From an uncultured Planctomycetia bacterium (GTDB taxonomy: Bacteria; Omnitrophota; Gorgyraeia; Pluralincolimonadales; Pluralincolimonadaceae), in NCBI GenBank assembly GCA_964650515.1, contig CAZYUB010000004.1, forward strand, positions 69,541 to 133,540: a stretch of 64,000 nt of DNA, in the 5' to 3' direction. Shown piece after piece: positions 21,241-25,661 of this stretch. Below the pieces are notes generated by a model. It was not told the origin of the DNA and did no database searches. It saw only the letters and a list, made by a program, of their open reading frames with translations. The position numbers and the translations under genes were made by a program. Position 1 is the stretch's first letter. Every line of letters begins with the position of its first letter.

Positions 21241-21714
21241 ATGAAAGCTCAGGAACTAAAGGAAGGCCTGGAGAATCTCGGATATGACTTCTTTACCGGG
21301 GTCCCGTGTTCGCTCCTCGGCGGCATAATCAGGGAACTCGGGGACGGCTATATCCCTTCGGTAAGGGAAGATACCGCGTTGGGCCTCGCTGCCGGCGCGT
21401 ATCTCGGCGGGAAGAAACCATGCGTGCTGATGCAGAACTCCGGCATCGGGTATTCGCTGAACGTCCTTACCAGCCTGAACCTCATATATGATATCCCGGT
21501 GCTCCTTATAATCAGCTTCCGCGGGTTCGAGGGCAAGGATGCGCCCGAGCATATAGTAATGGGCAGGCATTGCGTTGAGCTCATGGAAGCCGTAGGCATA
21601 AGCTCGAGGGTCTGCGGCGGGCCCGATATCGGCGCCGCGCTGGCGGAAGCCGATGCGCTCGTCAAGGGCGGCAAGCCCTGCGCCATATTCATAAAAGAAG
21701 GGGCCGTCTCATGA
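21241..21714 (+). CDS. TPP-dependent 2-ketoacid decarboxylase, alpha subunit (sulfopyruvate/phosphonopyruvate decarboxylase ComD-like)
   Basis: 157-aa TPP pyrimidine-binding half (GVPCSLLGG...MQNSGIGYSLNVLTSL) translationally coupled (ATGA) to the beta subunit. Confidence 0.7.
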   Translation: MKAQELKEGLENLGYDFFTGVPCSLLGGIIRELGDGYIPSVREDTALGLAAGAYLGGKKPCVLMQNSGIGYSLNVLTSLNLIYDIPVLLIISFRGFEGKDAPEHIVMGRHCVELMEAVGISSRVCGGPDIGAALAEADALVKGGKPCAIFIKEGAVS

Positions 21715-22262
21715 TAATGCGCGACGCGATCGCCGGGCTGCTCTCCGCGGTAAAAGACGAATATGTGGTCTGCGCGAACGGTTTCATCTCGCGCGATTCC
21801 TTCAACGCGAAGGACAGGCCGCGGAATTTTTACATGCTCGGCTCGATGGGCCAGGCGTCATCGATAGGCCTCGGGCTTGCAGTCGCGGACCCGCGCAAAA
21901 AGGTAGTGGTGCTCGACGGCGACGGCAACCTGCTGATGAACCTCGGGATACTCGCGATGATAGCCAGGATTTCACCCGGGAACCTGATCCATATCGTGCT
22001 CGATAATGAATGTTACGATTCCACGGGCGGCCAGCCGACGATATCGTCCTCAACAGACCTTGCCGAGGCCGCGCGCGGATGCGGGATAAAGAACGTCATA
22101 AAGGCGGGCGGGACGGATGATATACAGGCGGCATTCAGGGAATGCCTCGCCAAAAAGGGCCCGGTTTTCCTGCTGATAAAGGTCGGCCGCGACCCTGCGG
22201 GGAAAGCCCCGCGCGTCGATATAGCGCCGACTCAGATAGCGGAGAGGTTCAAAAAAGCATGA
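21711..22262 (+). CDS. TPP-dependent 2-ketoacid decarboxylase, beta subunit (ComE-like)
   Basis: TPP diphosphate-binding motif GDGNLLMNLG...N and a typical split-decarboxylase beta fold. Confidence 0.7.
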   Translation: MIMRDAIAGLLSAVKDEYVVCANGFISRDSFNAKDRPRNFYMLGSMGQASSIGLGLAVADPRKKVVVLDGDGNLLMNLGILAMIARISPGNLIHIVLDNECYDSTGGQPTISSSTDLAEAARGCGIKNVIKAGGTDDIQAAFRECLAKKGPVFLLIKVGRDPAGKAPRVDIAPTQIAERFKKA

Positions 22263-23341
22263 AGAGATACGTACTGCTGAACCCGGGGCCGGTAAATATC
22301 AAGGAAAAGGTAAGGAAGGCGCTGCTCGCGCCGGACATCTGCCACCGTGAGCCCGAATTCTCCTCGCTGATGGCCGGCTGCGCAAAAAAGCTGCTCCGCG
22401 CGTTTTCAGCGGCATCGTCCTATGAGGCCGTCTTTATAACGGGCTCGGGCACGGCCGCGCTTGAGGCGGCCGTCGCGTCCTCCGTCCCCAGCGGCAAGAA
22501 GATCCTCGTCATTAATAACGGGATATACGGCGAGAGGATAGCCGTTATCGCGGGGCGCCACGGGATAAGCGCCGTAAACGTCAAGTCGGATATAACACGG
22601 ACGCCTGACCTGGAGGCCGTCGAGAAGAAGCTCCGCGGCGACAGGTCGATCGCGGTCGTCGCGATGGTCCACCACGAGACGTCCACAGGGATATTGAACC
22701 CGGTCAACGAAGCCGGAAAACTTTGCAAAAAATATAAAAAGCTGTATCTTTTGGATTCCATCAGCGCCATCGGCGGAGAAGACCTCGACTTTAAGAAATG
22801 CGGAGTCGATATCTGCGTAGGGACCGCAAATAAATGCATAGAGAGCATACCCGGCGTTTCGTTTGTGCTGCTGAGGAAGTCGGCGCTGCCGGCGCTCGGG
22901 AGGGTCGCGCCGAGGTCGCTTTATTTCGACATTCCGGCGAACCTGAAAGGACAGAAGGCGGGCGTTCCGCTCTTCACTCCCGCGGTGCAGGCCTTCCTCG
23001 CGCTCAATAGCGCGCTCGATGAGCTCATAAAGGAAGGCGTAGGCAACCGTATAGACAGATACCGAAAGCTTGCGGGCCGCCTCAGGAAAGCGTTCGAGGC
23101 CGCGGGGCTTGAGTGCCTTGTGGGCCCCGCCTACCGTTCTAATACGATAACGGCGCTGCGCCTGCCCGCCGGCTATACCTATGAGAAGCTCCACAGGGAA
23201 TTCAAGGCCAGGGGATTCGTCATATACGCCGGCCAATCCAAGCTCAGGAAGACGATATTCAGGATAGCGAACATGGGCCAGATATCGGGGCGCGATTCAC
23301 GCAAGCTCATAGCGGCGGTAAGGGGTATATTCAGGAAATGA
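22259..23341 (+). CDS. Class V aminotransferase (AEP-pyruvate / serine-pyruvate transaminase-like)
   Basis: MKRYVLLNPGPVNIKEKV... is the class V AT N-terminus, with a PLP-lysine region and 361 aa length. Start at Met 40 of ORF 22142, overlapping the upstream stop. Confidence 0.8.
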   Translation: MKRYVLLNPGPVNIKEKVRKALLAPDICHREPEFSSLMAGCAKKLLRAFSAASSYEAVFITGSGTAALEAAVASSVPSGKKILVINNGIYGERIAVIAGRHGISAVNVKSDITRTPDLEAVEKKLRGDRSIAVVAMVHHETSTGILNPVNEAGKLCKKYKKLYLLDSISAIGGEDLDFKKCGVDICVGTANKCIESIPGVSFVLLRKSALPALGRVAPRSLYFDIPANLKGQKAGVPLFTPAVQAFLALNSALDELIKEGVGNRIDRYRKLAGRLRKAFEAAGLECLVGPAYRSNTITALRLPAGYTYEKLHREFKARGFVIYAGQSKLRKTIFRIANMGQISGRDSRKLIAAVRGIFRK

Positions 23342-24054: not shown

Positions 24055-24698
24055 TGAAGAGCATCAACAGGGTCTTAAGCGAACCGCTTTCGGGCTTATT
24101 CGTGAAGTCGGGCCTGCACCCGAACTCGATCACCCTCATGAGCGGGGCGTCCGGGCTCATCGCTTTTTTGTTCTTCTGCATCGGCAGCAAGATGAGCTTC
24201 ATAATCGGCGCGCTCTTCTTCGAGCTGTTCTATGTGCTCGATAACTGCGACGGCGAGGTCGCGAGGGCGAAAGGCCTGTCGTCGAAGTTCGGAAGCTGGC
24301 TCGATACGATGGTAGATTACATAATCCATGTCATCGCGTTCGGCGGGATAATGCTCGGCGTATACAGGCAGAACGAGAACCCTGTGATATTTTTCGCGGG
24401 GATAGCCGCGATGATAGGGATATTCCTGTCGTTCTTCGTCGTCATCCTCCAGAAGACGAAGAATTACGGCCTCGCGGTACACGGCATGCCGAAAGCGCCG
24501 GGCGGCGCCGAGAAGCAGTTGAGCGTCTGGGACAAGGTCATCGATGTGCTGTCGGTCGGGGATTTCTCGCTCGTCTTGATAATATTCGCCGTCATAGGCA
24601 GGATGGAGATGCTGTTGTGGCTTGCCGCGGTCGGCGCGAACCTGTTCTGCGTCATACTGCTCGCGGTCAATTTCAAATACCTGACCGGCCGTGAATAG
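24051..24698 (+). CDS. CDP-alcohol phosphatidyltransferase family membrane protein
   Basis: DNCDGEVARAKGLSSKFGSWLDTMVD matches D-x2-DG-x2-AR...G-x3-D-x3-D. Multiple TM helices. Confidence 0.75.
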   Translation: MMKSINRVLSEPLSGLFVKSGLHPNSITLMSGASGLIAFLFFCIGSKMSFIIGALFFELFYVLDNCDGEVARAKGLSSKFGSWLDTMVDYIIHVIAFGGIMLGVYRQNENPVIFFAGIAAMIGIFLSFFVVILQKTKNYGLAVHGMPKAPGGAEKQLSVWDKVIDVLSVGDFSLVLIIFAVIGRMEMLLWLAAVGANLFCVILLAVNFKYLTGRE

Positions 24699-25661
24699 AT
24701 GAAGATACTGAAGAAAACGATACTGGCCCTCGCGGCCGCGCTCTTTGTATGGATAATCTTCAGGTCGGGCCCTGACCTTATCCTCGCGCAGCTCGTCTCG
24801 CTTAACTGGAAGATAGCCGTAGTTATAGCCGCATACCTCATAGTATATTACTTCGATACGATGGGATGGTGGTGGGCCTTCCGCAAGGAAGTAAAACTGC
24901 CGGCGCTCTGGCGTTTCTTCCTCGCGAGGCAGGCGGGTGAGGCGATAAATTACACCACGCCGACCGCGTATATCGGCGGCGAGCCGGTGAAGGCGCTGGT
25001 TTTGCGCAAGCGCGACGGCGTCGATATGGTAGACGGGCTCGCGAGCGTAGTGATAGCGAAGACATCGCTGTTCCTGAGCAAGGTCGTCTTCCTGCTGGCG
25101 GGCATACTGGTCGCGTTGAAGATATTCAGGTTCAGCGGTATAGTGGCGACCGGGATACTCTGGACCTTCGCGGGGGTCTTCGGCCTGCTGGTCCTTTTCC
25201 TGTTCCTGCAGAAGAAGGGCTTATTCATGCTCGGGCTCAAGATGGCGCGCAAATTCAGGTTTAACGAGCCCTTCGAAGGGAAGAGGACGAGCCTCGAAGA
25301 GATCGACAGGGTGATCAGCGAATTTTACGCTAAACAGAGGCGCAGGTTCTTCCTCTCGTTCCTGTTCCATCTTGCCGGATGGTTTGCCGGGCTTATTGAG
25401 GTATACATTATTCTGCATTTCCTCGGCGTGCAGGTGGACTGGGCCAGGGCGCTCGTGATAGAGGTCTTCTTCAAGGCGGCGAACTCCGCGTTCTTCTTCG
25501 TGCCGGCGGCTCTCGGAGTGCAGGAAGGCGCGGGATACGCGGTTCTCGCCGCGCTCGGAATAGGCGGAGAGGTCGGCGTAGCGCTCAGCATAGTCAAAAG
25601 GATACGCGAGATCGCGTGGGCGGGTTTCGGGCTCGCCGTATACTGGAAGACACCCAAATGA
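24699..25661 (+). CDS. Flippase-like (UPF0104 / lysylphosphatidylglycerol-synthase-TM-type) membrane protein
   Basis: Eight predicted TM helices, with the W-rich DTMGWWWAFRKE segment typical of TIGR00374-like proteins. Confidence 0.55.
   Translation: MKILKKTILALAAALFVWIIFRSGPDLILAQLVSLNWKIAVVIAAYLIVYYFDTMGWWWAFRKEVKLPALWRFFLARQAGEAINYTTPTAYIGGEPVKALVLRKRDGVDMVDGLASVVIAKTSLFLSKVVFLLAGILVALKIFRFSGIVATGILWTFAGVFGLLVLFLFLQKKGLFMLGLKMARKFRFNEPFEGKRTSLEEIDRVISEFYAKQRRRFFLSFLFHLAGWFAGLIEVYIILHFLGVQVDWARALVIEVFFKAANSAFFFVPAALGVQEGAGYAVLAALGIGGEVGVALSIVKRIREIAWAGFGLAVYWKTPK

Follow-up and report, generated by a model that had tools for sequence, protein, structure and literature searches.

Why should six genes that resemble a pathway for activating and transferring a head group lie inside a hopanoid operon, and what would they make? 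Our study addressed this question for a 64 kb stretch of DNA from an uncultured Omnitrophota bacterium (hereafter the window; about 56 % GC and dominated by + strand genes), in which six + strand open reading frames (ORFs) at 21241-25661, here called the cassette, are placed between shc-hpnH and hpnA-ispH-hpnG. The reading that we consider somewhat probable, with all of the pathway enzymology drawn from homology and context, is that the cassette works as a module for phosphonyl tailoring and lipid head groups, and that it represents, within a hopanoid operon, a variant of the predicted CDP-alcohol phosphotransferase (CDP-OH) or Group 1 clusters for 2-aminoethylphosphonate (AEP) phosphonolipids. 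The cluster label ‘Group 1 phosphonolipid’ reportedly goes back to Yu et al. in 2013. The loci closest to the window were those of Candidatus Omnitrophota metagenome-assembled genomes (MAGs), in which the CDP-OH protein was 96-97 % identical.

The cassette forms part of a run of 13 + strand genes over 17532-28732, with intergenic spacing of -4 to +15 nt, in the following order:

17532..18320, + strand: DUF116 membrane protein; opens the operon, with 1 nt between it and shc (PF01976, 3e-28)
18322..20220, + strand: shc, squalene-hopene cyclase (SQHop_cyclase_N and _C, 348 and 428 bits)
20227..21225, + strand: hpnH, adenosylhopane synthase (TIGR03470, 396 bits, exceeding the cut-off of 225)
21241..21714, + strand: alpha subunit of a Ppd-type thiamine pyrophosphate (TPP) decarboxylase, RhiE/ComD-like (157 aa)
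21711..22262, + strand: beta subunit of the Ppd-type TPP decarboxylase, RhiF/ComE-like (183 aa)
22259..23341, + strand: AEP-type class V aminotransferase (AEPT), PhnW-AepZ-like (360 aa)
23338..24054, + strand: LicC/PntC-like nucleotidyltransferase (NT), probably a cytidylyltransferase (238 aa)
24051..24698, + strand: membrane enzyme of the CDP-alcohol phosphotransferase family (CDPOH; 215 aa)
24699..25661, + strand: HpnL-like LPG_synthase_TM membrane protein of the MprF-flippase-domain family (320 aa)
25658..26686, + strand: hpnA, hopanoid-associated short-chain dehydrogenase/reductase (TIGR03466, 372 bits, exceeding the cut-off of 368)
26683..27522, + strand: ispH/lytB (PF02401, 4e-82)
27519..28106, + strand: HpnG-like nucleosidase/phosphorylase (PNP_UDP_1, 2e-24; TIGR03468, 86 bits, cut-off 187)
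28103..28732, + strand: rpe, final gene of the operon, overlapping the preceding gene by 4 nt (PF00834, 2e-45)

Within the canonical hopanoid side-chain set, shc, hpnH and hpnA thus scored above their cut-offs and hpnG was only HpnG-like. The ORF coordinates and the Pfam and NCBIfam scans bear out an earlier note, made from the sequence alone, which had described at 21241-25661 a split decarboxylase, an aminotransferase, a cytidylyltransferase, a CDP-alcohol phosphotransferase and a flippase-like protein; all of these identities were correct by hidden Markov model (HMM) and Protein Data Bank (PDB) matches. That note also described the hopanoid cluster as interrupted. The six genes do lie between hpn genes, but because the sixth is HpnL-like, and so belongs to a named hopanoid-associated family as well as to the cassette, the interruption is smaller than claimed.

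The six ORFs are real genes rather than chance ORFs, because their order was repeated in more than 20 Omnitrophota loci and because dN/dS (non-synonymous over synonymous substitution rates) against the closest relatives was 0.04-0.14 for every cassette gene at dS 0.3-0.8. These values were the same as for hpnH, hpnA and ispH. Every cassette gene is under strong purifying selection, and this held after the loss in the window subclade of X280, a further gene of the lineage that is described below. The GC content of the cassette equals that of its flanks, with no compositional break. The junctions among the six genes measured -4, -4, -4, -4 and 0 nt, which makes translational coupling plausible. 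The start of the aminotransferase was placed at 22259 rather than at the in-frame upstream ATG called mechanically at 22142, on the basis of the ATGA overlap and the starts seen in relatives.

In the pathway that we propose, the split TPP enzyme (alpha plus beta, RhiEF-type) would first decarboxylate phosphonopyruvate to phosphonoacetaldehyde, the phosphonopyruvate coming from a phosphoenolpyruvate (PEP) mutase encoded outside the window or being supplied by another route. The alpha subunit matched RhiE, the alpha subunit of a phosphonopyruvate decarboxylase (PDB 9iz3_A, 2.7e-36), and the beta subunit, in which the GDG..DN TPP motif begins at residue 70, matched 9iz3_B (1.7e-33). The Pfam match of alpha to TPP_enzyme_N was weak and that of beta to TPP_enzyme_C reached 1e-20. 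Alpha scored 107 bits on TIGR03845 (cut-off 148) and 106 bits on TIGR03297, and beta scored 187.5 bits on TIGR03846 (cut-off 221.5) and 177 bits on TIGR03297, a model with a cut-off of 312.5 bits that was set for the fused enzyme and is to be read against 106 plus 177 for the two subunits of the window. Split beta orthologues linked to PEP mutase (PepM) scored 183-184 bits on TIGR03297, the same near-threshold ambiguity; since they score alike, the ambiguity is a trait of the split family and no evidence for sulfopyruvate.

Residues that are invariant in PepM-linked orthologues were retained in the window clade at 40/48 positions in alpha, 30/31 in beta, 41/47 in AEPT and 29/34 in NT. The sole invariant lost from beta was a fixed Y126I in the G-Y/I strand past the TPP motif, residue 126 being Ile in 12/12 window-clade proteins and Tyr in 16/16 PepM-linked orthologues and in RhiF. 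This substitution was rejected as a marker of decarboxylase specificity, as other lineages of the X280 type do not carry it. A neighbour-joining tree of the beta subunit interleaved X280-linked and PepM-linked sequences, and no alignment column discriminated between them. A coenzyme M reading was rejected on context and on ComDE scores under the cut-offs; comA/B/C-type domains were not found in the window by Pfam.

In the second step the aminotransferase would convert phosphonoacetaldehyde to AEP. This Aminotran_5 protein scored 332.2 bits on TIGR03301 (PhnW-AepZ; cut-off 360.8) and no more than 165 bits on any other class V family; two PepM-linked orthologues, at 338 and 355 bits, likewise fell under 360.8. 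Its top four PDB matches were all AEP transaminases (1m32 at 1.4e-58, 9kk8, 9kka and 6pd1), which clearly points to an enzyme of the AEP type. The LicC/PntC-like enzyme would then use CTP to turn AEP into CMP-AEP. NT matched NTP_transf_3 (8e-16) and also NTP_transferase, and its best PDB matches were LicC (1jyk, 2.6e-14) and, at full length, Treponema denticola PntC (6pd1, 8.9e-14). Residues D105 and E197 of NT align with E104 and E196 of PntC, which contact the amine of AEP (PMC6697681).

The fourth step would fall to CDPOH, moving the aminoethylphosphonyl group onto a hydroxyl of a membrane lipid. This protein matched PF01066 (4e-14), has about six hydrophobic segments and carries at residues 64-89 a complete motif, D64xxDGxxAR(x8)GxxxDxxxD89. 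Its nearest solved structures were AF2299 (9.5e-15) and IPCT/DIPPS, and its best NCBIfam matches were PIP synthases (64 bits); on the IPCT/DIPPS model NF041135, with a cut-off of 580 bits, NT scored 85 bits and CDPOH 53 bits. Finally, the HpnL-like protein, of the MprF type, would carry the zwitterionic lipid across the inner membrane. It matched PF03706 (LPG_synthase_TM, 115 bits, 5e-33) and lies in a hopanoid cluster, with scores of 175.8 bits on TIGR03476 for HpnL (cut-off 195.65) and 68 bits on the flippase-like model TIGR00374; a search by sequence found no solved relative. The functions of hpnL and hpnA are not established (PMC12583986; bioRxiv 10.1101/2025.07.29.667474). The order of decarboxylation, transamination, nucleotidylation and phosphotransfer proposed in the earlier note, with flipping to follow, is supported by our data, and the logic of its interpretation was largely right.

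Does the cassette keep hopanoid genes as neighbours elsewhere? A scan with the CDPOH family profile, taking one genome per species, gave 80 loci, which were annotated by tblastn with the window proteins, the PepM domain and hpnI/J/K. The invariant core across these loci was the pair of CDPOH and HpnL-like protein, the two genes being adjacent in most of them. The window clade (at least 15 Omnitrophota MAGs, at least 61 % identity) showed the order DUF116-shc-hpnH-(X280)-cassette-hpnL-hpnA-ispH-hpnG. A second Omnitrophota lineage (35-39 % identity; L004, L025 and L026) showed SHC-HpnH-PpdAB-AEPT-CDPOH-HpnL-HpnA-(HpnG) followed by NT~CDPOH and PepM~NT, where ~ marks a fusion, and so carries hopanoid genes, cassette and PEP mutase in one cluster. 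In Methylomirabilales the order was hpnH-hpnG-NT-CDPOH-X280-PpdA-PpdB-HpnL-HpnA-polyprenyl synthase-squalene synthase, and in Brocadiales hpnJ-radical SAM-hpnK-hpnI lay beside X280-PpdA-PpdB-AEPT-NT-CDPOH. Some marine Rhodospirillales carried PepM-Ppd-AEPT...CDPOH-HpnL, and others had shc/hpnH/ispH/hpnA interleaved with NT and CDPOH; in Legionellales and others, CDPOH was divergent from hpnL-I-J-K. The module was interleaved with hpn genes in no fewer than six lineages (the two in Omnitrophota, Brocadiales, Methylomirabilales, Rhodospirillales and Legionellales), and such recurrence is a strong argument, through guilt by association, for a hopanoid-related role. Synteny with hopanoid genes, which had been set beforehand as a test that could refute the interpretation, therefore holds in close relatives and in distant lineages.

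The linkage signal was strongest for the X280 type, in which 16/26 loci carried hopanoid genes. A set of three MAGs (L021, L022 and L024), one from Chlamydiae, one from Auribacterota and one unclassified, carried PepM~NT-PpdA-PpdB-AEPT-NT~CDPOH-HpnL with flanks free of shc/hpnH and hpnI-K, the Chlamydiae locus L022 having hpnA only. The gene hpnA adjoined Ppd, AEPT, NT or CDPOH genes even where shc and hpnH were not within 10 kb (L022, L043 and L044), and may in function be a part of the head-group module and not of core hopanoid synthesis.

In six loci (L021, L022, L024, L004, L025 and L026) NT and CDPOH formed a single fusion protein, of 450-470 aa and with an IPCT/DIPPS-like architecture in the following five:

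L021:9257-10630: NT~CDPOH fusion
L022:9218-10627: NT~CDPOH fusion
L004:5346-6740: NT~CDPOH fusion
L025:13802-15163: NT~CDPOH fusion
L026:15133-16524: NT~CDPOH fusion

By the Rosetta-stone argument, this fusion suggests that NT and CDPOH catalyse consecutive steps. A neighbour-joining tree placed the CDPOH of the window with the C-terminal domains of the fusions, so the adjacent genes of the window are the split form of one bifunctional enzyme. The second Omnitrophota lineage carries in addition a stand-alone CDP-OH paralogue beside HpnL.

Two variant arrangements were seen. At L088:9279-12746 (GCA_041320515.1) a TagF-like CDP-glycerol glycerophosphotransferase (PF04464) is followed by X280-PpdA-PpdB-NT, and the aminotransferase, the CDP-OH enzyme and HpnL are missing; this arrangement indicates that the decarboxylase-NT core also combines with a transferase of the teichoic-acid type. 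In Methylomirabilales (L090:4741-15903 and L087) a hopanoid cluster contains the cassette without the aminotransferase; two Zn-alcohol dehydrogenases follow downstream (L090:16003-18068) and an MMPL/Mla transport operon lies upstream. In these NC10 bacteria the aldehyde may be reduced rather than aminated, giving a head group of the hydroxyethyl type.

Where, then, would the substrate of the decarboxylase come from? PEP mutase was present in the orthologous clusters L004, L021, L022, L024, L025 and L026, and in the MAG of L032, from the second Omnitrophota lineage, PepM lies on another contig. A protein search with the L004 PepM domain gave 4231 matches, and among the best 120 the one Omnitrophota protein examined (P0092) was that of the L032 MAG. 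Most window-clade relatives carry instead, between hpnH and the alpha subunit, a gene for a 280-aa protein, X280. The X280 family (280-290 aa; L003:6267-7109 and L001:6314-7156, also L008, L010, L011, L018, L087-L091 and L092-L171) is highly conserved, and no match to it was found in Pfam or NCBIfam. Its AlphaFold model was all-alpha with a confidence (pLDDT) of 90.5, and a search of the PDB found no structural relative. Homologues with 48-66 % identity occurred in Scalinduaceae, Brocadiales (anammox bacteria), Methylomirabilales and Planctomycetota, and P0326/L087 has a fusion of X280 with the alpha subunit. X280 is missing from the window and from the two relatives closest to it (L006 and L007), and the 15-nt gap at 21226-21240 held no remnant detectable by tblastn. 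The distribution indicates that the window lineage is ancestrally of the X280 type and that X280 has since been lost in the window.

Scanning metagenomes with an X280 profile yielded a further 80 loci, and PepM was found in none of them (0/80). PpdA/PpdB stood beside X280 in most sufficiently flanked loci, in several orders and at times with tandem X280 copies, and many of these loci carried shc/hpnH or hpnI/J/K. The exclusivity of the two candidate feeders was counted within 6 kb of the decarboxylase at 43 loci flanked by 2.5 kb or more on each side, with the following result:

X280 only: 26 loci
PepM only: 10 loci
both: 0 loci
neither: 7 loci

X280 and PepM were thus mutually exclusive in the 43 well-flanked Ppd loci. 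The seven loci with neither were the window, L025, L026, L032 and L028 (second Omnitrophota lineage), and L017 and L075; in L025 and L026 PepM lies farther along the same cluster, and L028 is truncated by the contig. X280 may act as a third decarboxylase subunit or as a feeder that does not depend on PEP mutase, and one possibility is that, in replacing PEP mutase upstream of the decarboxylase, it supplies the decarboxylase substrate. The 2-oxoacid could come from a distant pepM or from X280, or it could be a different substrate such as 3-phosphohydroxypyruvate. We regard phosphonopyruvate as fairly probable for the window lineage, and the caution of the earlier note over the identity of the substrate was well placed. 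Tandem copies, in the arrangement X280-X280-PpdA-PpdB, were observed in L126, L129, L132, L133, L136, L137, L151 and L152, and those of L136 and L137 come immediately after shc-hpnH.

Several points weigh against a hopanoid-associated AEP head-group module. PEP mutase was not found in the 64 kb window (Pfam PF13714 and tblastn), as the earlier note had observed, nor within 10 kb on either side of the fully flanked window-clade loci, several others being truncated by their contigs; because the window lineage is of the X280 type and PepM was never seen nearby, the 2-oxoacid could differ from phosphonopyruvate. All equivalog HMM scores of the cassette proteins fell under their curated cut-offs, and the Ppd and sulfopyruvate decarboxylase models scored the window subunits equally. 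No hopanoid gene lay within 10 kb of the module in L021, L024 and many Rhodospirillales. The nearest characterized relatives of CDPOH (AF2299, DIPPS and PIP synthase) use no lipid-alcohol acceptor. The product of the Group 1 or CDP-OH family has never been characterized (PMC8942020), and the flippase role of HpnL-type proteins is hypothetical (bioRxiv 10.1101/2025.07.29.667474).

Which lipid would accept the head group is the point on which the reading of a head-group module divides. An extended hopanoid (bacteriohopanetetrol or ribosylhopane) is a serious candidate, as judged purely from gene linkage, because of the shared operon here and the hpn linkage in several unrelated lineages. We tentatively suggest that CDPOH esterifies AEP, or a close phospho- or phosphono-amino analogue, onto a bacteriohopanepolyol (BHP) to give a zwitterionic phosphono-hopanoid, for which the HpnL-type protein would be the flippase. 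The conventional alternative, a competing sub-case of the same module that we hold to be rather unlikely, keeps the AEP chemistry and takes diacylglycerol as the acceptor; this would yield a phosphonate counterpart of phosphatidylethanolamine, and the hopanoid linkage would reflect no more than co-regulation of envelope lipids. A glycerophosphonolipid is the default in the literature for this cluster family (PMC8942020; PMC5987646), and this alternative is kept alive by the PepM-type loci with flanks free of shc/hpnH and hpnI-K (L021, L022 with hpnA only, L024, L038, L045, L053, L055, L059, L060 and L083), no hopanoid gene being present in any of the 10 loci that have PepM within 6 kb. Co-regulation accounts less readily for a module that two Omnitrophota lineages with a mutual identity of just 35-40 % both carry interleaved between hpnH and hpnA/hpnG, for the linkage in Methylomirabilales, Brocadiales (beside hpnI/J/K), Rhodospirillales and Legionellales, or for the hopanoid genes of the X280-type loci counted above. 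The substrate could also differ rather than the acceptor. An unlikely alternative is that the X280-type lineage, including the window, uses another 3-substituted pyruvate and makes a phospho-amino or sulfo-amino head group that lacks a C-P bond, either from 3-phosphohydroxypyruvate through phosphoethanolamine to CDP-ethanolamine, or from sulfopyruvate to taurine. Such a substrate would fit a lineage in which PepM was found neither in the window nor in the 80 X280 loci and X280 excludes PepM, the tie between the two decarboxylase models, and an NT that is as near to LicC, an enzyme for phospho-amino-alcohols, as to PntC. It fits poorly with an aminotransferase that scores 332 bits on the AEP model against at most 165 bits elsewhere and has AEP transaminases as its top structural matches, and taurine is not cytidylylatable in such a manner. 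No residue column parts X280-linked from PepM-linked decarboxylases, the latter are equally ambiguous on the HMMs, and the comA/B/C genes expected beside sulfopyruvate chemistry were not found in the window.

Two further readings, which we consider highly improbable, depart from the AEP head-group module altogether. In one, the polarity is reversed: NT would make a CDP-hopanoid from a hopanoid phosphate, for example phosphoribosylhopane from an HpnG-type phosphorylase, and CDPOH would use this donor to load the phospho-hopanoid onto a small alcohol, just as CDP-diacylglycerol serves PgsA, PssA and PIP synthase. The PIP synthase matches of CDPOH (64 bits), the order HpnH-HpnG-NT-CDPOH in Methylomirabilales, and the Rhodospirillales hpn operons L034 and L048, with NT, HpnA and CDPOH and without nearby Ppd or AEPT, are consistent with this polarity. 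However, AEP offers no hydroxyl acceptor and the window encodes no oxygenase for 1-hydroxy-AEP, NT carries the acidic pair that in PntC contacts the AEP amine, and HpnG as a phosphorylase is only putative. The other reading, to which we give equally little credence, is of a product unrelated to lipids, either a DIPPS-like compatible solute or the decoration of a surface glycopolymer. The NT~CDPOH fusion does have the architecture of IPCT/DIPPS, and the distant X280-Ppd-NT locus L088 has a TagF-like glycerophosphotransferase in place of the CDP-OH enzyme, but the DIPPS model scores of 85 and 53 bits are far under 580, a flippase-like membrane partner is conserved beside the CDP-OH enzyme, and LicD, glycosyltransferase and polymer-export genes were not found in the operon by Pfam. 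Capsule or teichoic and DIPP readings were accordingly rejected on context and scores. Neither a LicD or glycan context nor a ComABC context was found, the two findings that the earlier note had named as telling against its interpretation.

How new is the cassette? The earlier note regarded it as a modification of an undescribed kind, which overstated its novelty: it corresponds to the core of the predicted Group 1 or Burkholderiales_CDP-OH family (PMC8942020 section 13). These predicted AEP phosphonolipid clusters have seven core genes and account for 36 % of the ppm neighbourhoods in RefSeq (PMC8942020), and a lichen-Nostoc phosphonate cluster of the Group 1 type lists hpnL (PMC5987646 Fig. 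7). The window has 5/7 of these core genes in common, namely Ppd, AEPT, the stand-alone PntC-type NT, the CDP-alcohol phosphatidyltransferase and the hpnL-type protein, but is without the Ppm~PntC fusion and the 2-oxoglutarate/Fe(II) oxygenase that gives 1-hydroxy-AEP; no domain of this oxygenase type was found by Pfam among the operon genes. It differs further in that Ppd is split into two ORFs, the cassette lies between hpnH and hpnA, and the lineage ancestrally had X280 in place of Ppm. The cassette type is therefore not new, its variant features being the split Ppd, the missing Ppm and oxygenase, the hopanoid operon and the X280 lineage; what is new is how widely the hopanoid linkage extends, together with the fusion of NT to CDPOH and the mutual exclusion of X280 and PepM. 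A link between phosphonates and terpenes had also been raised before: for the ‘phosphonate-terpene’ cluster of Nitrosococcus (GCF 731) a phosphonoterpene product has been speculated only (PMC8942020; PMC7285500). In that cluster, an antiSMASH hybrid call that can be likened to the window by description only, AEPT-type phosphonate genes lie together with those for squalene synthase and cyclase, and ppm is present. A literature search found no paper that links BHPs with AEP or phosphoethanolamine head groups. The ‘ethenolamine-BHT’ lipids (PMC12583986) were considered and set aside, a two-carbon amino head group being the sole likeness.

RhiEF of Bacillus subtilis is a split, heteromeric phosphonopyruvate decarboxylase (PDB 9IZ3/9IZ4; PMC12141560); RhiEF and ComDE share with the window the two-subunit architecture and the conserved TPP motif, but RhiEF works beside a PEP mutase in rhizocticin biosynthesis, whereas the window has none. 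The T. denticola PntC-AEPT protein (Tde1415, 6PD1) and LicC of Streptococcus pneumoniae (1JYK) share with NT the full-length fold and the acidic residues of the amine site, and the AEPT domain of Tde1415 matched the window aminotransferase at 2.9e-51. The fusion partner of PntC is the aminotransferase in Tde1415 and the CDP-OH transferase in the relatives of the window (the adjacent gene in the window itself), and the downstream transferases of the Tde1415 and LicC systems are LicD-like and act on glycans. IPCT/DIPPS (4MND) and AF2299 are the nearest solved kin of CDPOH, with IPCT/DIPPS having the fusion architecture of the window's relatives; DIPPS uses inositol substrates and soluble acceptors, in contrast to the predicted aminophosphonate pathway and flippase-like partner of the window. 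HpnL of the proteobacterial hpnIJKL clusters has PF03706 and a hopanoid-cluster context as in the window, and the partner of the flippase domain is a lysyl-phosphatidylglycerol synthase domain in MprF and a CDP-OH transferase for HpnL of the window type.

Our study provides a testable hypothesis for HpnL as the partner of a CDP-alcohol phosphotransferase that would install a CMP-activated amino-phosphonyl head group. Were the phosphono-hopanoid reading true, this would be the first function for HpnL, and perhaps for HpnA, in a lipid class never reported. A hopanoid acceptor would imply a class of polar biohopanoids overlooked by standard BHP work-ups in groups of geochemical importance that include anammox bacteria, NC10 and nitrifiers, and would bear on the interpretation of biomarkers and on the marine and sediment phosphonate pool. 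The largest predicted family of bacterial phosphonolipid clusters is without a characterized product, and the hopanoid linkage suggests where to look for it. The exclusivity of X280 and PEP mutase beside Ppd-type decarboxylases points to clusters that are invisible to ppm-guided phosphonate mining. Taken together, hopanoid linkage, NT~CDPOH fusion and X280/PepM exclusivity bring both what HpnL does and what this cluster family produces within the reach of experiment.

An exact-sequence look-up of the CDP-OH protein of the window returned no record, and a plasmid search with it gave only unrelated Agrobacterium and actinomycete matches with less than 45 % query coverage. At the head of the operon, the DUF116-shc pairing was kept throughout the window clade, which suggests an uncharacterized hopanoid-associated role for DUF116 in Omnitrophota. 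At the far end of the window (60001-64000) the GC content falls from about 0.56 to 0.50 and then 0.465, and this part may be a different genomic island; it carries a gene with a GT2 domain (60842-62383) and a 357-aa ORF without a Pfam match (62412-63485, - strand). Many glycan-degrading or glycan-binding proteins are encoded at 9121-16490 and 32754-37226, among them CBM_4_9 and CBM_11 proteins, two PEP-CTERM proteins, a LacI regulator, a glycoamylase, a GH116 enzyme and a 1008-aa F5/8 type C protein with a six-hairpin glycosidase-like domain, and these genes also border the hopanoid operon of relatives.

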